The position numbers and the translations under genes were made by a program. A stretch of 64,000 nucleotides of DNA from an uncultured virus (IMG/VR IMGVR_UViG_3300011867_000002) (taxonomy: Duplodnaviria > Heunggongvirae > Uroviricota > Caudoviricetes). The DNA lies in IMG/VR virus record IMGVR_UViG_3300011867_000002, positions 62,001-126,000 of that record, one strand, 5' to 3'. A model generated the notes under the pieces. That model had not been told where the DNA came from, made no database searches, and worked only from the letters and a program-made list of their open reading frames with translations. Of this stretch, positions 3,649-63,586 are shown one piece after another. The first letter of the stretch is position 1; the number at the start of each line of letters is the position of its first letter.

Positions 3649-4737
3649 ATGGCCGATACTGCTAAAAGTTTCGATATTGCTGAGATCATTCAGAAGATTA
3701 ACTACCCTTCCATTCCGGAAGCGGTCAACCAAGTCTTTCAATCAACCAGTTTGGGCGAAATTGACTCAGCAATCGGCAACAGCTTTCGCGGGATCAACCA
3801 CCGTCAAGTGGCGGGTGCGATCCCCATTAACAAAGATTCATACGGCTTGACTTTCTTTACGCGGCCCAAGTTTAACTTGACCACGGATAACCTGAACAAC
3901 ACCCGTCAACTCTCGCCACTGTTGACAACGCAACCGGCGTCGGTGCAGCGCGCCATCCGGTGCAGTCTGGATCGCGAGTTGGCCAAGCGCGGGATTACCT
4001 GTCCCTTTGTGGATAATCAACAGGCGTTCATTCCGCTATTGACCAACCACTTAGTGTCGATGAACGGCTGGCCTGACCTGCGAGTGGACACCTTCAGCCC
4101 ACAAGAAGGTGCTTACAAACAGACCTGGGCCATGGTTGACAGTGTTGCGCAGGATTATTCGGCATACGATATTACTGCCGATTTTCGGAACATGCCCGGT
4201 AGCCCAATCACACTATTGTTCTTTACGTGGATTCACTACATGTCCTTGATCTACCAAGGCATCATGGTCCCGTACTTCGAACAGATCATCGAAAACGAAA
4301 TCGATTACCAAACCCGCATCTACCGACTGGTCTTGGATGTCACCAAAACCAAGGTGCAAGGTATCTCGGCCTGTGGTGCTGCCATGCCGCTGTCCGCGCC
4401 GATGGGAGCGATGTTTAACTTCGCAGCAGACCGCCCCTTGAACAACGCGTTCGACACCATCTCGATCAACTTCCGCGCGATCGGCGCGATGTACGAAGAC
4501 CAAATCCTGATCTACGAATTCAACCGCACTGTGCAGTTGTTCAACGACACGATGAAGAATGCGTACCGGACCAAGATGTACACCCGTGTCGACATGGAGT
4601 TCTTGGAAATTTTCAATAACTACGGTTATCCCTATATCGACCCCAACACCCGTAACCTGGAGTGGTGGGTGCCTAACCAAATCTATCAACAACGTCTGGG
4701 TGTATATTTGGACCAGAAGAAACGGAGAACTCCATGA
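3649..4737 (+). CDS. Virion structural protein (phiKZ gp88-like by synteny)
   Basis: 362 aa with a GLTFFTRP motif; ATGA-coupled to the next gene. Confidence 0.65.
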   Translation: MADTAKSFDIAEIIQKINYPSIPEAVNQVFQSTSLGEIDSAIGNSFRGINHRQVAGAIPINKDSYGLTFFTRPKFNLTTDNLNNTRQLSPLLTTQPASVQRAIRCSLDRELAKRGITCPFVDNQQAFIPLLTNHLVSMNGWPDLRVDTFSPQEGAYKQTWAMVDSVAQDYSAYDITADFRNMPGSPITLLFFTWIHYMSLIYQGIMVPYFEQIIENEIDYQTRIYRLVLDVTKTKVQGISACGAAMPLSAPMGAMFNFAADRPLNNAFDTISINFRAIGAMYEDQILIYEFNRTVQLFNDTMKNAYRTKMYTRVDMEFLEIFNNYGYPYIDPNTRNLEWWVPNQIYQQRLGVYLDQKKRRTP

Positions 4738-7643
4738 GTGCAAGCCGCGATACCGTCATCGCTAACCTCCACCTGTATCAGCATGACCCGACACGTGTCC
4801 AGCGCGAGATCATCGCCATGGCGCGCGACGCGGCAACGGGCAAGATTCCGTTGGTCGATCCTACGAACCCCGTGGTGCTGTGTCTGGAAGCGGTGGCCTG
4901 CACGTTTTCTGCCTTGGCTGACCGTAACGAGAGCGATATGCGTAGGCTTTACCCGCAGATGTCGCAAACCGAGAAAGAACTCTATCGCCACATGTCCGAT
5001 GTTGACTACATCGGGCGCTTCGCTACACCAAGCCGCATTCGGGCCGGCCTCCTGATTGCCGAAGACGAACTCTTGAACCGCATGGTCGATGACCCTGCGA
5101 CCAAGAGCCGCAAGGTGGTGATTCCACGCAACACCTTCTTCAACGTCTCGGGCTACATCTTCTCGCTCCAGTACCCGATCGTCATTAGTCAGTTGCAACA
5201 CGAAGGTCTGCGCGTGGTGTACGACGTCAGCAAGCCCTCGCCACTCTTGACCTTGTCGAGCAACCTGATCGAAACCAGCATCGCCCAAGACGCACAAGGC
5301 GTGCGTTACGTGCGTCTGGAATTCTTTGTTGACCAGTTCAGCATCGAGTCCAAGCAAAACGACATCACCCGTGGTAAAGAGTTTTCACTCAACGTCCCGT
5401 TCACCCAGCAGTATTATTACGCACGGGTGTTTGTCGAGGCCAACACGGGCTGGCAAGAAATTCGCACGACCCATACCGACCAAGTGTACGACCCCACCGT
5501 CGTGACCGCTGTCTTGACCGTGATGGACAATGTCCTAAACGTGAAGATTCCCCAAGTCTACACGAACACGATCTTGGGTTCGAAGAAGGTGCGGGTTGAC
5601 GTCTACCAGACGGTAGGTGAACTGAATCTGGACGTCTCGGATTACCAACTCGACCAGTTCGGTATCACCTGGATGAACTACGACAAAAGCGACGACACGG
5701 TCTACAGTGCGCCGATGACGAACTTCCAGCAACTGATCCCCTTCATGATCGGCACATCGACTGGCGGGGCTTCTGCACTTCCCTTTGCTACCTTGCGGAG
5801 CCGGGTGATGAAGAACGCCGCCGGTGCGGCCATCGAGTACCCGATCTCGCAAGTGCAGATCGAGACCAAACTCGAAGAAAAAGGTTACGGAGTGGTGCTC
5901 GAAGTCGACAACATCACCGACCGGGTGTTCCTGGCCACCAAACCCATGCCGACACCATCGGACGAAACCCTATTGACGGCCGCTGCGTCCGGGATCGAGA
6001 CTGTGGGTGTCGACTTGGCCAAGATCGTCTTGCTCGACAGTGTGATCAACAACGGCAGTTCGGTCACGATCACGCCAGAAACCCTGTACCGCCAAGACAA
6101 TGGCATTACGTCGCCGGTGTCGAGTAACGAATTGGCTGCCATCTTGGCGTTGCCGCCTGACTTGCGGGCTGAATCAGTCAGCAAGAACAACTGGCGTTAC
6201 GCTCCATTTCACTATGTGCTCGACACGAGTGGCGATGAATTCGATCTGCGAGCGTATTACCTCGATGCCCCAGAAGTCTTGGGCAAGACCTTCGTCGGTG
6301 AGAACGCTACCACGCTCCTTCAGGTGTCGACCGCGCAATACGGTATCTTCCGTACTGCCAACGGCTACACCTTGCAAATTGTCACCACCTCCTCGGATGC
6401 CTTCCGCGCACTCGCGGACGAAGACGTGCACGTTCAACTCGCATTTATCCCCGCTGGCGAGAAAGACCGGGCGTACCTAAACGGTACCTTTGTGGGGCTG
6501 AACGAAAACGAAGAACGTATTTACAGTTTCGACTTGGCCACGAACTTCAACGTGACCAGCAAGAACCTGTTACAGCTTCAGCACTTCTTGATGTACAGCA
6601 ACGAGCCACGCTTGACGAACGTTTCGCTCAGCAATCCGTTTGACATTCTGTATTCGGTGTCAAGCCCCATGCAAGCGCAGTGGCGGCCGACTACCATCGA
6701 CGCCGCGCTCGGGCGTCAGTACTTACCCAGCACGGTAGCTGGCGTGACGCATGAAACGCTGACGATCAAGTTTGGCGATGCACTGAAAACGCTCTGGACC
6801 AAGAGCCGTAGTTACGCGGTAGCAGAAGAGTTCGAAAAGCATGCGTTCGACGTGCCGATGTACTACACCAACGACGTCTATCAACTCGACAGTACCGGTT
6901 CGCCCATTTCGTTCGACGCTGAGAACAACCTCGTGATGACGGTACTGCACCACCGCGATGACCCAGTCTTGGACGCGGGCGGTAATCCCGTGTACCGCTA
7001 CCGGAAAGGAGACCTGGTGCTCGACGATGAGGGCAATCCGATTCCGATCACAAATCGCAGCATCAAGCGCATGATCGACGTGTTCTTGATCGACGGTACT
7101 TATTGGTTCGCAGATGACATCACGACGGTGAACTACCGCAAGGAGTTGACGCGCAAAGTGGTGAGTTGGTTGGTCGACGAACTGGCAGAAGTGTCAAAGA
7201 AGGTACTGGACAAAACCCGTATCTATTTCTACCCGAAAACCACCATGGGCATGATTGATGTGGTGGTCGGCGCAGGCGCCACCCGTACGATTGAAGCGGC
7301 CCAATCGTTTGTGGTGAAGATTCAAGTCGACGATGCGGTGTACCGTAACCTCGAACTGCGTAAGCAAATGGAGATTGCGACCATCAAGACCATGAGTACG
7401 CTCATGGCCTCGGCAACGATCTCGGACAGCTTGATCACCAAAGCACTCGATGAACAGTACGGCAACGAAGCCATTAGCCACCGCCACAGTGGTTTGGGCG
7501 GCAACAATGGCTTGACCAGCTTCAAGATCATGAATGAAGCGAACCGGTGCAGCCTGCGTAAGCGCTTGGTGGCACTGAACGACGGCACCTTGGTGACCCA
7601 AGAAGACGTCTCGGTCGAGTTCGAACGGATTGGCAGTAACTAA
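4734..7643 (+). CDS. Large virion structural protein, probably baseplate (phiKZ gp87-like)
   Basis: 969-aa beta-rich ORF; size and position fit the conserved block. Confidence 0.7.
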   Translation: MSASRDTVIANLHLYQHDPTRVQREIIAMARDAATGKIPLVDPTNPVVLCLEAVACTFSALADRNESDMRRLYPQMSQTEKELYRHMSDVDYIGRFATPSRIRAGLLIAEDELLNRMVDDPATKSRKVVIPRNTFFNVSGYIFSLQYPIVISQLQHEGLRVVYDVSKPSPLLTLSSNLIETSIAQDAQGVRYVRLEFFVDQFSIESKQNDITRGKEFSLNVPFTQQYYYARVFVEANTGWQEIRTTHTDQVYDPTVVTAVLTVMDNVLNVKIPQVYTNTILGSKKVRVDVYQTVGELNLDVSDYQLDQFGITWMNYDKSDDTVYSAPMTNFQQLIPFMIGTSTGGASALPFATLRSRVMKNAAGAAIEYPISQVQIETKLEEKGYGVVLEVDNITDRVFLATKPMPTPSDETLLTAAASGIETVGVDLAKIVLLDSVINNGSSVTITPETLYRQDNGITSPVSSNELAAILALPPDLRAESVSKNNWRYAPFHYVLDTSGDEFDLRAYYLDAPEVLGKTFVGENATTLLQVSTAQYGIFRTANGYTLQIVTTSSDAFRALADEDVHVQLAFIPAGEKDRAYLNGTFVGLNENEERIYSFDLATNFNVTSKNLLQLQHFLMYSNEPRLTNVSLSNPFDILYSVSSPMQAQWRPTTIDAALGRQYLPSTVAGVTHETLTIKFGDALKTLWTKSRSYAVAEEFEKHAFDVPMYYTNDVYQLDSTGSPISFDAENNLVMTVLHHRDDPVLDAGGNPVYRYRKGDLVLDDEGNPIPITNRSIKRMIDVFLIDGTYWFADDITTVNYRKELTRKVVSWLVDELAEVSKKVLDKTRIYFYPKTTMGMIDVVVGAGATRTIEAAQSFVVKIQVDDAVYRNLELRKQMEIATIKTMSTLMASATISDSLITKALDEQYGNEAISHRHSGLGGNNGLTSFKIMNEANRCSLRKRLVALNDGTLVTQEDVSVEFERIGSN

Positions 7644-18600: not shown

Positions 18601-20076
18601 GTGTCCGAACAAGAAAACCAAAACAGCGGGGAGGCGACAAGCCTTCCCAACGATGTCCCTGAAAGCAACCCGGCAGAAGCAGCAGTACCCGAAACGCCCG
18701 TGGTCTTCGGTGAACAAACCCGTGACGTCTTCGTTGAAAAGCCCAAGGGCAACGCCGTTACGCCGGCCCACGTCAAGTTGGCCAACGAGACCTACAACGA
18801 AACCGTCGACAAGCTGAACGCGATGCCGAACGAGGACTATGCCAAGTCCGAGTCGGGCCGCAAGTTCCTCGAAAGCTTCAAGGAATCCCTGTTCACGATT
18901 CCTTACAACAGCATGTACGCCGGCGTCACCACGCGCTTTGGCAGCTACTGGATGCAGGAACTGCCAAGCGAAGCCGGCAAGCTCGCACCGAGCGTGCGTC
19001 AATGGAAATCCGGCGACGGCGCGATGCTGACCGGCGAAGCGGCCATGATGCGTATGCGTCAAGCACTCGGTCTCGGTACCCAGTTTACCGTCCCCCTGTA
19101 TCACACCGGCATCTGGATCACCGTCAAGGCGCCGAGCGACGACGCCCTGATCGAACTCGAACGTCGTCTGTCGGAAGAGAAAGCCAACCTGGGTCGTCAA
19201 ACCCACGGCATGATCTTCGGCAACAACTCGGCTATCTTCGCCGGCATCCTGGCCGACTTCGTGATCGACCACATCTACGACAGCAATCTGATCGAAGCTG
19301 AGCGCAGCTACCACGAAGTCATCAAGTGTCTCGACCTGCCGATCATGGTCGCCGCACTCGCCTACACCGTCTGGCCGCAAGGCTTCCAGTACAGCCGCGT
19401 CAAGCTGAACCCGGAAAATGGTACCTACATCACCGAAGAAGCGGTGCTGAAGATCGGCGGCACGTTCATCACCGACAACCTGTCGATCACCGATCGCCAG
19501 CGCGCCCACATGGCCAAGCAGCGCGGCCAGAAAGTCAACCTCGAAACGCTCAAGATTTACCAAGAGCAATTCCTGCGCGGCCAGCCCCGCAAGATCGTGG
19601 TCAACGATCTGGTGTCGTTCAACGTCGCAGTACCGTCGATCGCCGACTATCTGGAAAGCGGCAGCAAGTGGGTCAACACGATCACCGCCATCGTCGACAA
19701 AGCGCTCGGCCTGGACGCCGATGAACGCAAGCGCGTGGACTACATCGAAAAGCTCGGTAAAGCCACCAACGTGCGCCAGTTCGGCCACTGGATCACCAGC
19801 ATCACGATCGACGGCAACGTCATCGACCAGCGCGAAGACATCGACAACTCGCTCGACGTCTACAGCAGCTCGGACCAGTACAACGGCAAGTTCTTCGACG
19901 ACGTCCAGGCGTACATCGAAGACTCGACCATCCAGGTCATCGCCGTCCCGCGCGGTAACTACGAAGAAGAATCCACCAAGATGAAACAGTTCCCAAGCTG
20001 GCTCGTTCTGGACGTGATGTCGACTTTTTTTATCCTACTCCGCCAGAGGGTATGGTTGCTGGGTCAACGGATGTAG
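18601..20076 (+). CDS. Conserved protein (phiKZ gp77-like); possible tail/baseplate assembly chaperone
   Basis: 491 aa, GTG start with RBS AGGAG; ends just after a T7 run encoding FF. Confidence 0.75.
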   Translation: MSEQENQNSGEATSLPNDVPESNPAEAAVPETPVVFGEQTRDVFVEKPKGNAVTPAHVKLANETYNETVDKLNAMPNEDYAKSESGRKFLESFKESLFTIPYNSMYAGVTTRFGSYWMQELPSEAGKLAPSVRQWKSGDGAMLTGEAAMMRMRQALGLGTQFTVPLYHTGIWITVKAPSDDALIELERRLSEEKANLGRQTHGMIFGNNSAIFAGILADFVIDHIYDSNLIEAERSYHEVIKCLDLPIMVAALAYTVWPQGFQYSRVKLNPENGTYITEEAVLKIGGTFITDNLSITDRQRAHMAKQRGQKVNLETLKIYQEQFLRGQPRKIVVNDLVSFNVAVPSIADYLESGSKWVNTITAIVDKALGLDADERKRVDYIEKLGKATNVRQFGHWITSITIDGNVIDQREDIDNSLDVYSSSDQYNGKFFDDVQAYIEDSTIQVIAVPRGNYEEESTKMKQFPSWLVLDVMSTFFILLRQRVWLLGQRM

Positions 20077-28889: not shown

Positions 28890-28936
28890 TCTTTCTCCTT
28901 CTTATTTCCCTACCCTCTTTTTAAATAGGGAGCGCA

Positions 28937-31605: not shown

Positions 31606-32970
31606 TTAGAAGGGCTTGCGGGCGCCGCCGGTGAAGCCACCCTGTTGTGCCCAGCCAGGGGTGCGCTCTTGGTCGTTGTACTGGTTGGGATAATGACCAT
31701 GCGTCTGGACGCCCAGTTGGGCCGCCAGTGCTGGGTTGCTACCCATCAGTGCAGCGAAGTCCACTTTGCCATTGGACTTGACCACCGGACCCGCGTTGTT
31801 CTGCGGTGGTGGCTGGTAACCGCCCCATGGCTGGCTGTTACCGGTGAAGGTCGATGGCGGCGGTTGATACTGCGGTGCCGGTGCTGGCGTCGGTGCCGGG
31901 AAGGGCGACGTGGCCACAGGGGTACTGGGGATTTCCACCTTTTCACCCGTGATCGGATTGATCATCACCTGCTTCTTGGCAGCGGCTGCCGGTGCTGCGG
32001 GTGCAGCCGCTTGTGCTGCTGGTGCGGCGGCTGTCGCGGTTGGCGCATTCGGGGCAGGTCCTTCATTGCCTTCGAACATGCCGAGGTTACGGGCTTGTGC
32101 GTAGAGACCGCCGATATTGCTGACGATCTCGTGTGCCCAGTCCAGTGGCGCGATCAGCTGGTCGGCCTGTTCGATATGGTCGCTGAACAGTTCGAGCTGG
32201 TCGTTGAAGAAGCCGAACAGAGGAGCTGATGCTTTCAGGAGCGATTCCGTGGTCGGTGCCATCTGCGACAGGCTGCCGACGTGATAGTGATCCTTCTTGC
32301 CGATGTTCGGGATCACGTATTCCATCGCCTTCTTGAACGACTCCACGTCTTTTGGACGCAGCTTGACGTTCTTGCCTGGCGCACTGACCACACCTTCCTT
32401 GGTCGCATTGCACAGCGCTTCGTAGATCGGGAAGCTGACGATCGCGGCGCGCGCGAACTTCTCGGCCTTGTAGGTGCCGTCTTCCTGTGCCACGTTGACC
32501 ACGCCACCTGGCTTGCTGTAGATGTTGACCATCGCACGGTCGCCAGGGAAAGCGTCGAGCAGCTTGGCGTAGTTCGGCAGCGATTCCTTTTCATCGACCT
32601 TCTTGACGAAGGACAGGAACTCGGTTTGGTCAGGCTTCAGTTGCGCATGCTTGCCGGTGTCGCGGGCCACCTTCAGCAAGGTGCCAACGATGATGCCGAA
32701 CATGGAGTTCAGGCGGATGTTGAGAATCGTACGAATCGCCTCGTGGATCGGCGACTCTTTGCGCGACAGCGATTCGTACAGCGGGTTGAAGACGATCCGG
32801 TTGCTGAAGTCCGGGTTGTCGAGTTGGGCGTCGAACGGCAACACCAGGCGCTGGTCTTTGATCGTCAGCGGCACGATCTGCTGTTTTTCCATACGCGACA
32901 CAAAACCATCGGTGTCATGCAGGAGTCCCAGCGCCTTCAGAAAGTTTACGTAAAATTCATTCAACTTCAT
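31606..32970 (-). CDS. Conserved nucleus-block protein (phiKZ gp70-like) with a P/A/Q-rich disordered tail
   Basis: 454 aa; lies between the PicA-like gene and nvRNAP beta. Confidence 0.7.
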   Translation of the reverse strand: MKLNEFYVNFLKALGLLHDTDGFVSRMEKQQIVPLTIKDQRLVLPFDAQLDNPDFSNRIVFNPLYESLSRKESPIHEAIRTILNIRLNSMFGIIVGTLLKVARDTGKHAQLKPDQTEFLSFVKKVDEKESLPNYAKLLDAFPGDRAMVNIYSKPGGVVNVAQEDGTYKAEKFARAAIVSFPIYEALCNATKEGVVSAPGKNVKLRPKDVESFKKAMEYVIPNIGKKDHYHVGSLSQMAPTTESLLKASAPLFGFFNDQLELFSDHIEQADQLIAPLDWAHEIVSNIGGLYAQARNLGMFEGNEGPAPNAPTATAAAPAAQAAAPAAPAAAAKKQVMINPITGEKVEIPSTPVATSPFPAPTPAPAPQYQPPPSTFTGNSQPWGGYQPPPQNNAGPVVKSNGKVDFAALMGSNPALAAQLGVQTHGHYPNQYNDQERTPGWAQQGGFTGGARKPF

Positions 32971-33013
32971 GTCAATTCCTTTCTAGCCCCATTGCTGGGG
33001 CCGCTTGGTATTA

Positions 33014-36079: not shown

Positions 36080-36117
36080 ATGTCTCTCCCTAAAAGACTC
36101 TGTTACCAGCTCAAGTA

Positions 36118-42407: not shown

Positions 42408-42444
42408 TGTTCTCTCCTGACAGTGTAGATAAAACTAGAAAAAA

Positions 42445-44462: not shown

Positions 44463-44539
44463 TTCCTCTTTTTAATTAACGGTGATGTTTGCGCAAACAA
44501 ACGTTAGAGCGGGCGACTTTATTGTCGCTGACTCATGTA

Positions 44540-44564: not shown

Positions 44565-44762
44565 CATTCGTGGGCATCATAACTCCCTTTACTAGAAAGC
44601 CACCCTTGGGTGTGACCCCAAGAGTGACGGTTGAGACCGATGAAGTCTTTTCCTATAACATAGCAGTATGCTAGTAAAAAAATAGTTCACTGTCTTCTTT
44701 CAGTGCTGCTTTTGATGATCCATGTTATGTGTTGTGCTCATCTAACGACTGGACAATCCCCC

Positions 44763-47269: not shown

Positions 47270-49450
47270 TCAATAGTCGTCCGAAATCAGACGCGTCAGT
47301 CGGTCACCGCCTGAGAAATACATCCCCAAAGTTTGGAGGATGATGTAAAAGACCTTAACCGTGTCCATCACAATGCGACGGTAGTCGATCATCTGGAAGA
47401 TTTCATCCGGGATACCAGATTGCGCCACCACGGCTTGTGGCAACTGGAAGGTCGTGATGGACTTCATCTTGCCAGTGCGTTCGATGTACTTTTCCATACG
47501 CGCCGCCAGTTCTCGGTCTTGGAAGCCGGCAATCCATTCCCGTACTTTCACGCCGGACGACAGATCGACCGAAATCTTCAACACAGCGTACGGTGGTTCT
47601 TCCGAGAAGCCATACTTCGGTGCAAAGACTTCTTGCCAGAAGGTGTGGTGCTTGAATGGAGAGTCTTCCTTGTCGAGCTTGTACGCTTCCGAGTTCTTGA
47701 TCTGGGTCGACTTGAAGTAATCCTCGTCGCCGCGCTTGATCGTTGCAATCACCCGCCGTTCGATTTCAGCCACCCGCTTAACCATTGTGAGCAGATTGAT
47801 CTTCTTCTCCATCATCACGAGGTCCATGATGTCACGCATCATGACGGCCGCTTCCTTCATGACTTCTTTGGAAACGTTCGAAGACTTCAGGTGCACGCCT
47901 TTGATTTCTTCTTGCAACTTGGCAAAAATCTGCCCTTCCTGAATCGACTTGACCGCGTAGTAGTGCTTAGCCACCTGGGTCGGTACAAACACGTCGAAGT
48001 AGTACTCGTTCTTCATGGCAATTTGGAACAAGCGCTTTTGCTCGATACCGAAATTCGCCGACATCTTAGCAAGCAGATGTGTAACCGTTTGCGATGCCAA
48101 GAAAATCATGGTGGCACCGATGGCTTTACATTTGGGATCAAAACCTGGACGGCCCTGGTGCCACATGACCCAATCCTGAACGGTAAAGATGGTGGAGTCA
48201 GTATCGGACACGAGGGCCACACGGCGGATACTGTCGGGCAGCTTCGCCAAAGAAGCCGGAACGTTCGAAGTAACCCAAAACGCTGAGATTAGGTCTTCGT
48301 ATTCTACCAGAACATGGGCAATATTGGCGGTAGTTGCAGCAATAATGCCGTAGACATCGTTTCCTTTTAGGTTGTGGTAAGGCGGTTCTTGATTCTTTTG
48401 TGGATTGACAGCAATAATGATGTCGGCACAAATCGATCCTGCCAGATTGAGATAGTCGCCTCGTGCCTTCTTGATCACCGCTTCGGCTTCGGCCGCAGGC
48501 AAAGGTGTTTCGACACGGCGTGACAGTTTATCCAAGAAAGTCCGCACCATTACTTGGTTGTGCTTCATCAGGTGGTACATGTCGCCCGTGTAGACAAAAG
48601 CAGCACGCTCAATTGGGGTTAGCTTTTCCACCAAGACTTTGATACGGGCCAACTGTGCAATCGCATGCGGCCAGTACATGTTGGTCGAGTACGTGATGCA
48701 CGCCATCGTGTCTTCCACGGTCGGGTACGCGATGTCGTACTTTTCCATCACTTGACGGATTTTTGTGTAGTCGCTGTGGTTGACGATCGAGACGATGTTG
48801 TTCAGTGCTGTTTGCGGCGACCAGTAATGACGGTTACCGGCGACAAACTTCTCATTATTGACGTTCCCGTAACCCGAGGTAACACGACAGGTCGAAGTCA
48901 AGGTGCTGTGGCCAGTCGGGTTGTACATCGGCGTCGACGGCGTAACGTGTGAACCAGAAATGGCATTGTTACGAATTTTGCGACTATTCTGTTCGATCTT
49001 CTTCAAGACCTTGGTCGCTGTGTCGCCGGCAGCATCGGCGGCGAACATGGCCTTTTTAGCTTTACTACGCATCGCGACGTTATCGTCGATGTAGTCGACG
49101 AGGAGCGACTGTTTCTTCGACGGGTGAATGTACGTCGTAAAGGTAGCAGCAATCAGTTCTTGGTTCTTGATCGCTTCGTTCAAGTAACCCAAGAAGCCCA
49201 TGGCGCGTTTGACACGGTCACCATTTTCTTGGCGGAACAGGAACATGGCTTGTGGGTCTTTAAACTCGAACTTGCCACCGGGTGCCATTTCACGCTGGAT
49301 GTAATTGGCACAGTACTCTTTGGTGCGGGTGCGATCAGTCATGATCGAGAGGTACATCGCTGCATCGTCTTGATAATGACCCATGGGGTTGATGTCCCGC
49401 TGGTATTCTTCGGCAGGCAAGACAAAGGGATTGTGAGCAAGAACGTTCAT
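47270..49450 (-). CDS. Split family-B DNA polymerase, C-terminal/catalytic part (phiKZ gp50-like)
   Basis: Motif B Q...KIRNNAISG, motif C SDTDST, plus KNEY, KHY and KGV. Confidence 0.9.
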   Translation of the reverse strand: MNVLAHNPFVLPAEEYQRDINPMGHYQDDAAMYLSIMTDRTRTKEYCANYIQREMAPGGKFEFKDPQAMFLFRQENGDRVKRAMGFLGYLNEAIKNQELIAATFTTYIHPSKKQSLLVDYIDDNVAMRSKAKKAMFAADAAGDTATKVLKKIEQNSRKIRNNAISGSHVTPSTPMYNPTGHSTLTSTCRVTSGYGNVNNEKFVAGNRHYWSPQTALNNIVSIVNHSDYTKIRQVMEKYDIAYPTVEDTMACITYSTNMYWPHAIAQLARIKVLVEKLTPIERAAFVYTGDMYHLMKHNQVMVRTFLDKLSRRVETPLPAAEAEAVIKKARGDYLNLAGSICADIIIAVNPQKNQEPPYHNLKGNDVYGIIAATTANIAHVLVEYEDLISAFWVTSNVPASLAKLPDSIRRVALVSDTDSTIFTVQDWVMWHQGRPGFDPKCKAIGATMIFLASQTVTHLLAKMSANFGIEQKRLFQIAMKNEYYFDVFVPTQVAKHYYAVKSIQEGQIFAKLQEEIKGVHLKSSNVSKEVMKEAAVMMRDIMDLVMMEKKINLLTMVKRVAEIERRVIATIKRGDEDYFKSTQIKNSEAYKLDKEDSPFKHHTFWQEVFAPKYGFSEEPPYAVLKISVDLSSGVKVREWIAGFQDRELAARMEKYIERTGKMKSITTFQLPQAVVAQSGIPDEIFQMIDYRRIVMDTVKVFYIILQTLGMYFSGGDRLTRLISDDY

Positions 49451-49526
49451 GGTGGTGCACTCCGTATTGGTATCACAACATGATGCGGTCCGGTATTTTT
49501 CTAAAAGAAACCAAAAAAAGAACGTG

Positions 49527-49571
49527 CGGCATAAAAGAAAAAAAGAAGGACGAGACCCGAAGGTCCCGTCC
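49527..49571 (-). terminator. Intrinsic terminator with a C(UUCG)G loop, U-tract and UAUGCCG
   Basis: Minus strand GGACGGGACC-TTCG-GGTCTCGTCC-TTCTTTTTTTCTTTTATGCCG. Confidence 0.85.
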
Positions 49572-49835
49572 CCAAACGCATGTTACACAAACTACGTCAC
49601 CCGTAAACGTGTACGCATCAATCCGCCGAAAAGAGGGTAAACAGCAGAGCGCAGTACGCCGTCCATCACAAGGAAGTCACCTGTTGAAGAAGGAATGGCA
49701 GGTGACTCGGGCATGCGACGGTGTTTGTTGGTCGCCTTCATGCGGACAAAGGTTTCTTAACTCTTGACAAGGGAGAGTACTGCGCTGGAGCCAAGAGTTA
49801 AGCAAGCGGGATCGACCTAACCCCTCTCACTACTC
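49535..49835 (-). ncRNA. Candidate structured non-coding RNA (~300 nt) with a pseudoknot; family unknown
   Basis: No credible ORF; perfect 11-, 10- and 9-bp helices; promoter-like motif upstream and terminator downstream. Confidence 0.6.
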
Positions 49836-49880
49836 ATAACCATGGGGATACCTAGTAAAAAAATTTGTCTTTTACTTTGT

Positions 49881-50285
49881 TTACTCGGCCAGGCTGATTT
49901 CGAAGTCCATGAACTTACTGGCGAGCAGGGCATTGCGCAGTCGTGGCAGATCGCTCGCACTGATGTTGCCGACCTTGATGTTGTAATTGCGCGACGTCAC
50001 CAGCTGGATGCTGTCTTCCTTGATCCAGGGGATACCGATGACCACGACTTCACCCATGGCCGTCAGGAACTCGATGTAGCTGTACGCGGCCGGATCGTTC
50101 GGGGTACCAGGTGGCAGTTGGTTAAACACCTGTGCATGCAGTTCGCGCGTCGGGCACTGGGCCCGGATCGCGCTGCGTTCACTCATCTCGGCGGACAAGA
50201 TGGTCACGTTCTTGTAACTGGAACCCAGAATACCGGGTGCCCAGAGATCGAACGAATACACACTGTTGACTTTAAATGGCGTCAT
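49881..50285 (-). CDS. Conserved hypothetical protein (phiKZ gp49-like by synteny)
   Basis: 134 aa with a GIPWI motif; RBS AGGA. Confidence 0.75.
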   Translation of the reverse strand: MTPFKVNSVYSFDLWAPGILGSSYKNVTILSAEMSERSAIRAQCPTRELHAQVFNQLPPGTPNDPAAYSYIEFLTAMGEVVVIGIPWIKEDSIQLVTSRNYNIKVGNISASDLPRLRNALLASKFMDFEISLAE

Positions 50286-50310
50286 GGGGATTTCCTAAAG
50301 AAGAAGGTCG

Positions 50311-50697
50311 CTATCCACTGACGTAATCAAGTACCATGATGTCCGGGTGGATGTTGCGTGGGGTATAAGGAATGGTGCCATCGAGATCAACCAGATTTGC
50401 GTTCACCAGGAACTGGTAGAACTTGACGGTGATTTCGGTGGCAGCCAAACTCAGTTTGTTTAGACTGGCTGGGTCTTGATCCCAACGTTTGTCTCGCATA
50501 AGATGGGTGTCCGGCCAAGTGGCACCGATATGCTGCATCACATGCGCCCACGGGTAGTTCATTAAGCCATAGACCATCTGTCGAATCAATTCATCGAAGT
50601 CTGCCCGTTGGGGCAGATTCGGTGCAAAGTACTGCTCGAAGATGGCGTAGTACTGGGGGATGTTGACAATGACGTTAAGCGGGAACTTGCGGCTCAT
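50311..50697 (-). CDS. Conserved small helical protein (putative paralog array)
   Basis: Start moved to ATG 50697 (RBS GAGGTG). Confidence 0.7.
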   Translation of the reverse strand: MSRKFPLNVIVNIPQYYAIFEQYFAPNLPQRADFDELIRQMVYGLMNYPWAHVMQHIGATWPDTHLMRDKRWDQDPASLNKLSLAATEITVKFYQFLVNANLVDLDGTIPYTPRNIHPDIMVLDYVSG

Positions 50698-51142
50698 CGT
50701 CACCTCGCGTAAACAAGATGTGCTCCAGCACAATGTTCTCGTTGGCCATGCACTTGTAACTGTACATGAGGCGGTTGTTCTGGTACGCGCCGATACGTTG
50801 CAAGACACGCACCAAGTGCATGCCGAGGTTCACAAGAAAGCGGGTGTACTCGACCACCTTGGAGATATCGCGGTCGCCCATGGCTTCTTGGACGATCTGC
50901 ATGCTTTCGTATTGGAGCGACAGCTCGGCGTCTTTCTTAAAAGCGATGACTTGGAGAATCTCGGGCAGGATTTTGTCCATGTCTTCAATCCAGTAGCTCT
51001 TGAGGACGCGTGGCGATGCATGTTCTCCCTCGTAGAAGGGCAGCATCGATTCACGCAGTTCTGACACCACCGCCCGTGTATCGAGGATGATGTGCGATGG
51101 TGCTTGTTGCTTCTCGTTTCCGGGTAAGGTAAAAAGTGCCAT
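50675..51142 (-). CDS. Conserved small helical protein (putative paralog array)
   Basis: Probable start at ATG 51142; the exact start is uncertain. Confidence 0.65.
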   Translation of the reverse strand: MALFTLPGNEKQQAPSHIILDTRAVVSELRESMLPFYEGEHASPRVLKSYWIEDMDKILPEILQVIAFKKDAELSLQYESMQIVQEAMGDRDISKVVEYTRFLVNLGMHLVRVLQRIGAYQNNRLMYSYKCMANENIVLEHILFTRGDDEPQVPA

Positions 51143-55584: not shown

Positions 55585-55689
55585 TTCTTGAGTCCTCTTT
55601 TATTGATGTGCTGCACTTGGTACATAACCTAGCTCAGCACTGTTAAAAAATAATGTTTATAAAGGCGAATCGTATGTCAGCCTCATGTA

Positions 55690-59247: not shown

Positions 59248-60228
59248 TTACTCGGTTTTGTCGTCGTCAAGGGTAGGATCGAACTTGTGACGTTTTGGCG
59301 GTTTGCCGGTGAACTGCGGAGAAAGCAGGTTGGCCAGCTCCTCTTTACGGGCATCGTAACCGTAGGTGATATTGTCGCTTTGCATCAGGGCGCGGGCGGC
59401 GTCACGGGATTCCAACAACGAACGCGAGAGCTTGGCGAGCGGATCGTGCGTCCAGAAGGTATTGACGATCCGGCTACGGTACTTCGCTTTCTTGCGCATC
59501 GAGGCGCCACTCGGTGCTTGTTTGGTAAGACCCCGCATCACGTGATCGTAGATTCGATTCTCCGACAACACCAGACCACCGGTTTGGCCACTAACGTAGA
59601 CCGTGCCGTTGTAGTAACGCACAACGCGGCGGTATGGCTTGGCGTAGATCGATTCGACTTCACCCCAGGCACGGATAGGTGACATGCCTGGAAACACCGT
59701 ACGCGCCCGCGATCCCTTGCGCTTGTTGTTCAGGCGCTTGGTGTACGTGCTGGTGTCGCGATATCCCTCCCCCATCACCACAATTTTTCCATACGAAGTC
59801 GTGGTAAATCGGCGGCGGCTATCGCTCACCGGAGTTATGCGAGAAATGTCTTTGTGCAGATTACGACCAGAAGCTTGGAGCGTACGGTGACCTGGGCCAT
59901 CGAAATCTTCATGATCGAAAGCACCTGGATTGAAACCCATCATGCCGTACATGTTGAGCGTCACCGGTGGCAAGTCAGCAGACCGACCGATGTTCAGGTA
60001 GTCGATGATCGCATCGTTGTAGACTTCCCAGTCCGTCTTGCTGAACTTGTAGCGGCTGTTGGTCACCACCTGTGCCACACGGTAGCCGCCCATTTCGATG
60101 GCGGATTGAATCGACTCTGGCGAGATGGTCAGCGTTTCGCCATTTTCGAATTTAAGGCGCAGTTCGAATTGTTCTTGTTCGCCAACTGTTTGGATGACTT
60201 CGAAAGTCATGTGTTCGTTAGTTGCCAT
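59248..60228 (-). CDS. Hypothetical protein with a basic C-terminal half
   Basis: 326 aa, RBS GAGGA. Confidence 0.75.
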   Translation of the reverse strand: MATNEHMTFEVIQTVGEQEQFELRLKFENGETLTISPESIQSAIEMGGYRVAQVVTNSRYKFSKTDWEVYNDAIIDYLNIGRSADLPPVTLNMYGMMGFNPGAFDHEDFDGPGHRTLQASGRNLHKDISRITPVSDSRRRFTTTSYGKIVVMGEGYRDTSTYTKRLNNKRKGSRARTVFPGMSPIRAWGEVESIYAKPYRRVVRYYNGTVYVSGQTGGLVLSENRIYDHVMRGLTKQAPSGASMRKKAKYRSRIVNTFWTHDPLAKLSRSLLESRDAARALMQSDNITYGYDARKEELANLLSPQFTGKPPKRHKFDPTLDDDKTE

Positions 60229-62899: not shown

Positions 62900-63570
62900 T
62901 GACAGCCCTTAAAAGTCCGGCATAAAAGAAATTTCTTGGAAAATTTTGAAGGCGTTCAAACTCCTCAGAAATCCCCCCCAAATTTCCACTCGCAAAGATA
63001 TGAGGTAGGCGCCCCCTTGGAGCGCCTACCTATAATAAAAGCCCCCCCCACCCCCAACTATAGTTATCTTTAAGATTCTTATATTGCGAGTTGTTCATCT
63101 CGCAACTACGCTTTTTTCTGTATGATAAAGCGTCAGAAAGTTTATACATAAGGTATGTCAAATTGAGTAAAAAAAAGATTTAGTCGGAATTTTTTCTGAA
63201 AGAAAAATTCCTCAGTCTTTTGTTTGCAGAGCAACACCTAAGACAACGAAGATGAGGAAAGTGCAAACAAGGTTGTTTGCACATTACACATGTTTGTTTT
63301 CGACCACTTGATACATTGGACTTCTAAAAGTGTGATTAATGGGCGCGCGGACCGGCGGCGGCGGGCGGCGGCGACCCCGAATACCTCGCCAAAAGCTTCA
63401 CCAAGCACCCTCAGAAGCCATCAGTTAGCTTAACAAAAACCTCCCTTAGAAGTTCCGCTATCTCATCATTAAAACGCTTAGAAGTCGTTTTAATCGGTTT
63501 CTGTATAAGAAACTAACATTGTAGACTTCGTGCTAGAAAGCGTCATCATGTGACAAGCCTGTCTACACCA
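62900..63570. other. Long AT-rich non-coding region with many inverted repeats (candidate origin/control region)
   Basis: No ORF; at least seven hairpins, poly-C runs and a GGC-rich island; lies between divergent genes. Confidence 0.55.
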
Positions 63571-63586
63571 TGCTAAAGGAATTGCT

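Follow-up and report, generated by a model that had tools for sequence, protein, structure and literature searches.

What occupies the 430-nt gap between the gp49 homologue and the DNA polymerase gene in a phage of the nucleus-forming type, and what might it do there? The window analysed here (64,000 nucleotides, G000:62001–126000) belongs to a virus record of 221,460 bp that carries ChmA together with split nvRNAP and vRNAP genes in phiKZ order, the core locus of the Chimalliviridae; the phiKZ gene order holds for ChmA, PhuZ, the DNA polymerase and five nvRNAP subunits. On the minus strand the gap is preceded by the gp49 homologue (49881–50285, phrog_3235, 34% identity to PHIKZ049) and followed by the polymerase gene (gp50 homologue, 47270–49450, phrog_2927), which has its own conserved leader. 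The closest named phage is Burkholderia phage FLC9 (52% identity in the polymerase), and three uncultured relatives (L001–L003) show polymerase identities of 79–84%; at the gap locus these are 64–76% identical, comparable to the 3′ end of gp49. The first-pass annotation had placed here a stand-alone minus-strand non-coding RNA of a jumbo phage, of no known family, with ribozyme, scaffold and translational regulator as its possible roles. From the alignment and covariation described below we conclude that a stand-alone, structured, non-coding RNA of about 300 nt is indeed real (49530–49835, minus strand), and that it represents a clade-wide structured RNA with lineage-matched targets in the phage-nucleus module, its expression and effect being predicted. 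It is single copy (neither blastn nor a covariance model found a second one), and ARAGORN found no tRNA or tmRNA gene in the whole genome. Such an RNA would bear on how nucleus-forming phages switch from building a nucleus to using it, and on how shell, spindle and five polymerase subunits that are encoded far apart are dosed. It offers a candidate RNA regulator whose targets can be named, together with predictions at the level of single bases and compensatory variants that occur in nature, in a phage family on which antisense oligomers and dCas13 are already in use.

Boundaries and strand of the unit

The unit is delimited by a promoter-like motif and a UUCG terminator with a U-tract, both of which had been picked out in the first-pass annotation, and promoter motif, 5′ end and terminator all align across L001–L003. 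The promoter-like element (49835–49866, minus strand) comprises a T-run, TACT at 49857–49854 and TATG at 49838–49835, the motif TTTTTTTAC-N-TATG being kept in all three relatives, and we infer a transcription start near 49835. In phiKZ the middle (nvRNAP) promoter motif has TACT about 22 nt ahead of the start (PMC8244752) and here TACT lies about 21 nt before the inferred start; in this spacing the unit promoter resembles the phiKZ middle type, although it has a T-run at the place where the same source gives an A-rich run. The intrinsic terminator (49530–49573, minus strand) has a 12-bp stem, two pairs of which have changed on both sides, a UUCG loop and a U-tract. As terminator, promoter and G-U pairs all indicate the minus strand this was taken as the RNA strand, and the same three features exclude a plus-strand CsrB-like reading based on GGA loops. 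A small ORF was likewise excluded, since there are stops in all three minus frames and no minus-strand ORF spans the unit.

The position upstream of the polymerase gene is fixed in most relatives, as might be expected of a cis element, whether an attenuator or leader of the polymerase or a DNA structure near an origin. However, the terminator is strong and conserved, the polymerase has a separate leader, one or two genes intervene between unit and polymerase in RP31, FLC1-1B and several others, the G-U pairs and the UUCG loop point to one RNA strand, and the polymerase start gives no signal in the lineage-matched test described below. We consider a cis role the least probable of the explanations weighed here.

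The same promoter motif recurs at 44681, about 200 nt ahead of chmA; phiKZ gp54 likewise has a distal middle start (PMC8244752). A second motif of this kind, TTTTTTTTAC-N-TATG, lies at 63173 (minus strand), some 480 nt from the next called gene; the stretch around it (62900–63580) holds three inverted repeats that are perfect over 9 bp or more and is possibly another structured RNA.

Fold of the RNA and the proposed pseudoknot

A fold was derived with RNAalifold from four sequences (the window and L001–L003), together with folds of the separate domains. It comprises P1, P2 and P3, a long-range helix P4 around P5 and a P6–P7 arm, and the terminator. The consensus has 68 pairs, with 97.1% of cells paired and 17 pairs changed on both sides; this level of covariation was reached by none of 500 shuffles and slid partners gave 1–3, although one must bear in mind that the test is biased towards the fold, the structure having been built from the same four sequences. 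P1 (49805–49827; all helices are on the minus strand) is a short, near-invariant 5′ hairpin with no pair changed on both sides, and its 5′ arm AGAGGGG also complements the P7 loop. P2 (49756–49802) is a 13-bp stem with G-U pairs, six of its nine aligned pairs having changed on both sides, with the C-rich loop GUACUCUCCCUU at 49789–49769. The P3 hairpin (49735–49752) shows such change at one of five pairs. P4 (49587–49728) joins 49728–49708 to 49603–49587 through 15 pairs (97.5–100% paired, one changed on both sides) and encloses P5 and P6–P7. P5 (49675–49707) has a 9-bp stem, rebuilt with a different sequence in each relative, and the loop CCAUUCCUUCUUCAA; it was misaligned in the alignment and was left out of the 17 of 68 count, being judged from separate folds. 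In the long P6–P7 arm (49604–49665) 7 of 19 pairs have changed on both sides, and the P7 loop at 49641–49629 is UUUACCCUCUUUU.

Three stems of the unit display C/U-rich loops (CUCUCCC, UUCCUUCUU and ACCCUCUUUU), and the probability of being unpaired in the window sequence is 0.99 for the P5 loop, 0.92 for the P7 loop and 0.51 for the P2 core. The suggestion that the minus-strand loops are anti-Shine-Dalgarno-like is therefore supported, with the added point that these loops sit on covarying stems. Among the sequencing runs listed for the sequence none was of RNA, and four short DNA contigs (X1–X4) were used for variants only. In X3 and X4, which come from two other studies, 49656 and 49612 co-change so that a U-A pair in P6 becomes C-G. 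A change at 49705 in X1–X3 turns one P5 pair into C-A, a minor point against a rigid base to P5.

The perfect complements listed in the first-pass annotation (11, 10, 9 and 6 bp) all exist in the sequence, and the 11-bp helix (49756–49766/49792–49802) and the 9-bp helix (49675–49683/49699–49707) are each maintained by compensatory change in L001–L003. The 10-bp complement of 49777–49786 with 49648–49657, which had been read as a long-range pseudoknot, is not maintained: none of its ten pairs has changed on both sides in L001–L003 and the duplex energy falls away from −18.6 kcal/mol in the window to −8.3, −5.8 and −3.6 kcal/mol in these relatives. Its 3′ arm forms the 5′ strand of P6, which covaries, and X3 leaves the pseudoknot partner as it is while the P6 pair is swapped. 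The stretch taken for the pseudoknot loop (49786–49769) is instead complementary, without a mismatch over 12 nt, to the ribosome-binding site (RBS) of gp123, an nvRNAP subunit gene. From these comparisons we reject the long-range pseudoknot. Of the other helices proposed, GCGAC/GTCGC keeps two of five pairs in L001–L003, GCATG/CATGC keeps three or four of five and overlaps GCGAC at 49715, and the GTCC/GGAC multiloop closure keeps none to three of four. The outer helix (49632–49637/49822–49827) is retained by all four sequences as an AGAGGG/CCCTCT complement, though without any compensatory change, and its arms belong to other conserved elements, the stem of the 5′ hairpin and the P7 loop; the G-U-rich hairpin at 49575–49620 is really the 3′ strand of two long-range helices.

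These results bear on whether the RNA is a pseudoknotted ribozyme or a structural scaffold. The complement on which that reading draws is perfect over 10 bp in the window and extends to 7–9 bp in L001, and a different, short pseudoknot is possible in the four close sequences: the P3 loop CGCA is conserved and has a 5–7 bp complement in the 3′ linker of each, with no compensatory change, so that pairing with AUGCG near 49583–49579 could form a candidate pseudoknot of another kind. Against it, the long-range pseudoknot does not covary and is lost in L002 and L003, X3 breaks one of its pairs while restoring P6, and sequence and size vary across the clade, unlike those of a catalytic core. Rfam gave sub-threshold hits only for window positions 48500–51000 and none for 16 relative loci, which agrees with the earlier view that no known family is represented here and counts against a ribozyme. 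We regard a ribozyme or scaffold as very improbable.

The relatives L001–L003 adopt the covarying fold unaided. For the window sequence the free minimum free energy (MFE) is −108.0 as against −101.3 for the covarying fold, 6.7 kcal/mol lower, and an alternative conformer is therefore possible there. The MFE z-score is −3.4 when the terminator is included and −1.8 when it is left out. Between 49575 and 49835 there are three inverted repeats that are perfect over 9 bp or more, a number equalled by 1 of 20,000 dinucleotide shuffles; when the window is divided into 375 overlapping tiles of 340 nt, however, 6 of them hold three as well. Two such tiles lie at about 19211–19550 and 32641–32980.

Counterparts in related phages and matching of loops to ribosome-binding sites

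In the window phage chmA, phuZ and a gp59-like gene all carry AAAAGAGG, the complement of the P7 loop, and this gives predicted targets of 8 nt at the RBSs of chmA (44465–44472) and phuZ (55594–55601; these and the following sites are on the minus strand). Among the nvRNAP genes, the predicted targets are AGGGAGAG of gp68 (36084–36091, inferred UUG start, 8 nt with the P2 loop), AAGAAGGA of gp74 (28896–28903, 8 nt with the P5 loop) and, more weakly, GGAGAG of gp55 (42412–42417, UUG start, 6 nt with the P2 loop). When 136 start regions over four genomes were ranked against the P2 loop, gp123 came first, gp68 second and gp55 sixth, the gp123 match being 12 nt without interruption and 15 pairs in all, extending over the start codon; against the P5 loop gp74 ranked first, and in G003 this loop has a 14-nt complement in the gp71-73 site. 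Seeds are mostly of 7–10 nt. Within the window genome 8-nt matches occur in five of the eight targets and in 7 of 217 other genes, although when purine-rich sites alone are compared within a genome the enrichment is weak (p 0.10, 0.11, 0.43 and 0.025). A genome-wide scan of duplex energy placed the gp123 site fifth of 1,572, with chmA and phuZ outside the top 40, and the targets were not singled out.

Three nvRNAP genes apparently start with UUG (36079), UUG (42407) and GUG (G000 213664), and the UUG starts of two are conserved in G001–G003. The gp74 leader contains AAGAGGGTA at 28911–28919, a 9-nt complement of the P7 loop that lies just upstream of the P5 site and outside the scored region, so that two loops may bind this one leader. 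Several orphan genes (G000 3906–5891 and 5968–6828, and window 59248–60228) use an A-rich AAAGAGG site and may be further targets.

The corresponding gap was compared over 116 distinct gp49–polymerase intervals. Above about 41% polymerase identity many gaps measure 300–650 nt, and below it most are near 100 nt, as in many distant phages. Inspected by eye, they often have a promoter with a T-run, a small hairpin at the 5′ end, long stems bearing U/C loops, and a terminator. A loop survey covered 49 syntenic gaps of 230–700 nt (11 near-duplicate or coding gaps had been removed, kin remaining); anti-Shine-Dalgarno (anti-SD) motifs were found in 54 hairpin loops as against 15 in shuffles (four per gap) and 9 on the opposite strand, and 29 of the 49 gaps have at least one such loop. 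In the FLC9 group the unit is about 450 nt long with 26 of 115 pairs changed on both sides, and a sequence profile ties in this group, loci that were not in the seed scoring E values of 5e-28 to 1e-33. A covariance model built from the four close sequences found the syntenic gaps of L140, L178, L148, L180 and L164 (E 0.002–0.03) and missed the FLC9 unit. With such weak scores the distant RNAs are best taken as positional and architectural counterparts, not as one alignable family. Searches beyond the locus added little: blastn against 50,697 phage records gave short chance or terminator hits only, the FLC9 unit found only itself by blastn, a gp49 query yielded no confirmed relative, and in a 16-base pattern scan of viral contigs only the known relatives L007 and L008, among the matches listed, fitted the profile.

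If loops and target sites have evolved together, each RNA should match its own phage better than others. The dialects of the RBSs do match the loops, being AAAAGAGG in the window phage, GAAACAAGGAA in FLC9 and TTAAAGGAAAGAAA in RP31: the FLC9 loop complements GAAACAAGGAA of chmA over 11 nt and sites before gp55 and gp69 over 10 nt, and the RP31 RNA has a 14-nt complement at its own phuZ. A first test with chmA alone gave p 0.004 on 16 of 33 loci, 14 having been omitted (kin, miscalled or unit missing) and three more for want of a loop. For the full test the gap segment was cut by eye in 31 phages, of which 8 were dropped as kin, and each RNA was scored by the longest uninterrupted complementarity that it shows to start regions of its own phage and of foreign phages; the 23 lineages were treated without formal tree correction and starts were picked by a simple Shine-Dalgarno score. 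Ten or more lineages allowed a test for 23 genes, and exactly eight of these score, each at p 0.022 or less: PhuZ, gp123, ChmA, gp68, gp74, gp69 (PicA), gp71-73 and gp55. None of the other 15, among them the polymerase, vRNAP subunits and virion proteins, falls below p 0.08, and the gp49 start is null like that of the polymerase. Pooled over 154 sites the own complement averages 7.53 nt and the foreign one 6.77 ± 0.11 nt, a difference reached in 0 of 10,000 permutations. The signal persists inside GC terciles and for AGG-containing sites alone; it survives removal of the two discovery lineages, removal of ChmA and the keeping of one AACAAGG lineage only, and it also stands for the nvRNAP genes alone. 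Fourteen control genes (247 sites) show no cognate signal (6.28 versus 6.23 nt); this set omits one likely spurious ORF and contains no capsid gene, its 768-aa member being gp128. The opposite-strand control was null for all eight genes. Out of 21 lineages, 8 have their own RNA in first place and 13 have it among the best three, and in 5 it comes 14th or lower. These comparisons show that the loops track the RBSs of their own chmA, phuZ, picA (gp69) and five nvRNAP genes lineage by lineage.

A broad anti-SD RNA, directed against host mRNAs or any strong site, would give matches to phage genes as a by-product. The loop cores UCCUU and CCUCC mimic the 16S 3′ end, FLC9 carries the cuckoo motif CCUCCUCCC, and about 30% of the other purine-rich phage sites match at 7 nt or more. 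However, the bases flanking the cores vary by lineage and track the sites of the phage itself, a pattern for which a host anti-SD, being near-invariant, cannot account, and AGG-containing control genes show no cognate signal. We therefore think a broad anti-SD function quite unlikely.

Mode of action and comparison with known RNAs

From the complementarity it is very likely that the loops pair with the target mRNAs and, given pairing, likely that the outcome is repression, the sign following from where the pairing falls. In phiKZ early promoters serve gp54 and gp68 as well as the start sites at gp70.1 and gp121 (PMC8244752 Table S3), Goslar chmA and picA are expressed ahead of nucleus formation (10.1101/2023.09.20.558163), and pairing across the Shine-Dalgarno sequence normally blocks initiation, as established for RNAIII (PMC9266662). 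With a middle-type promoter, early targets and SD-blocking pairing, feedback is the simplest model. On balance we favour a trans-acting, RNAIII-like RNA that would pair with and repress the phage's own nucleus-building mRNAs. It would be transcribed by nvRNAP from its middle promoter once the nucleus exists and leave the nucleus; its loops would then pair with the RBSs of early nucleus-building mRNAs and block 30S binding. This would hold down any additional production of the shell, import gate, spindle and nvRNAP, a negative feedback acting on the early-to-middle switch. It probably hits other early mRNAs that share this site dialect, too. This agrees with translational regulator, one of the roles first offered for the RNA.

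The main rival is an adaptor that grips the mRNAs of nucleus proteins by their RBSs and exports, stabilizes or co-locates them at the nucleus surface. The target set is one functional module, three distinct loops could hold several mRNAs, the FLC9-group RNAs are far more structured than an antisense seed requires, and ChmC binds near start codons and binds small RNAs (PMC11077065). Against this, the pairing spans the SD and sometimes the start codon, which for RNAIII normally blocks initiation (PMC9266662), late mRNAs, which also need export, have no match, and several relatives have a much smaller version. An adaptor is in our view unlikely, and a similarly doubtful standing is given to the wider proposal that the RNA is a widespread part of the phage-nucleus programme and reads a phage-specific RBS code, either as an adaptor or scaffold that routes shell, import-gate, spindle and nvRNAP mRNAs or brings them together, or in place of the ribosomal anti-SD.

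The nearest parallel to the favoured repressor is RNAIII of Staphylococcus aureus, likewise a large multi-stem RNA with C-rich loops against G-rich RBSs, which pairs with several mRNAs during a programme switch (PMC9266662); the unit shares with it conserved unpaired C/U loops on covarying stems, and has RBS complementarity that changes along with the targets. RNAIII is, however, bacterial, 514 nt long and peptide-encoding and has no sequence match to the unit, whereas the unit is from a lytic phage and would act, through seeds specific to the lineage, on the nucleus and polymerase genes of that same phage. The cuckoo or alpha-r14 sRNAs (RSs0680, NfeR1) also have several hairpins with anti-SD loops, but they are alphaproteobacterial RNAs of two to four adjacent hairpins with one common loop motif (PMC4615179). 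The unit has three different loops, two of them inside the long-range P4, and CCUCCUCCC is absent from all of them (in FLC9 it occurs in one loop only). By these features the unit would work like RNAIII and the cuckoo RNAs and is a member of neither group. OOP and aQ of lambda, PreS and VpdS, all of them phage RNAs, control development through base pairing; they come from temperate phages and are cis-antisense or Hfq-dependent, mostly with a single target (PMC12197685), whereas the unit would act with several loops on a dispersed set of its own genes. The ncRNA candidates of phiKZ and 201phi2-1, phages of the same family, are short promoter–terminator units (PMC8545117, PMC10914365, PMC11512511); the list of 11 for 201phi2-1 has no entry at gp81–gp83, and those named for phiKZ lie at other loci than the unit's, with no target shown in these sources. 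In the literature searched, mostly outside subscription journals, we found no description of the unit or of such regulation, no multi-loop RNA acting on dispersed core genes of its own lytic phage and no precedent for seeds that shift along with a private RBS dialect.

In the gp49–gp50 gap of phiKZ (L555:6378–6578) and in that of PhiPA3 (L209) a promoter-like motif, a hairpin and a common GTGAATGTAA-TTGATGTG suggest a short RNA of about 60–75 nt. It may be that phiKZ keeps a minimal version, with UACCUCU set against AGAGGU of gp68, gp71 and gp74 and GAGGUAG at gp69. As the loop-to-site match in phiKZ is short (5–7 nt), PhiPA3 has none and the 65 start sites listed for phiKZ at 10 minutes include none in this gap (PMC8244752), the extension to phiKZ is only a lead. 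In 201phi2-1 (L208:2548–2985) the gap is filled by an annotated reverse-strand gene, gp82, although a forward ORF with an RBS seems at least as plausible. In L227 (1266–1900), L217 and L268 this locus is occupied by structured units that are larger or arranged in tandem and carry several CCUCCU loops.
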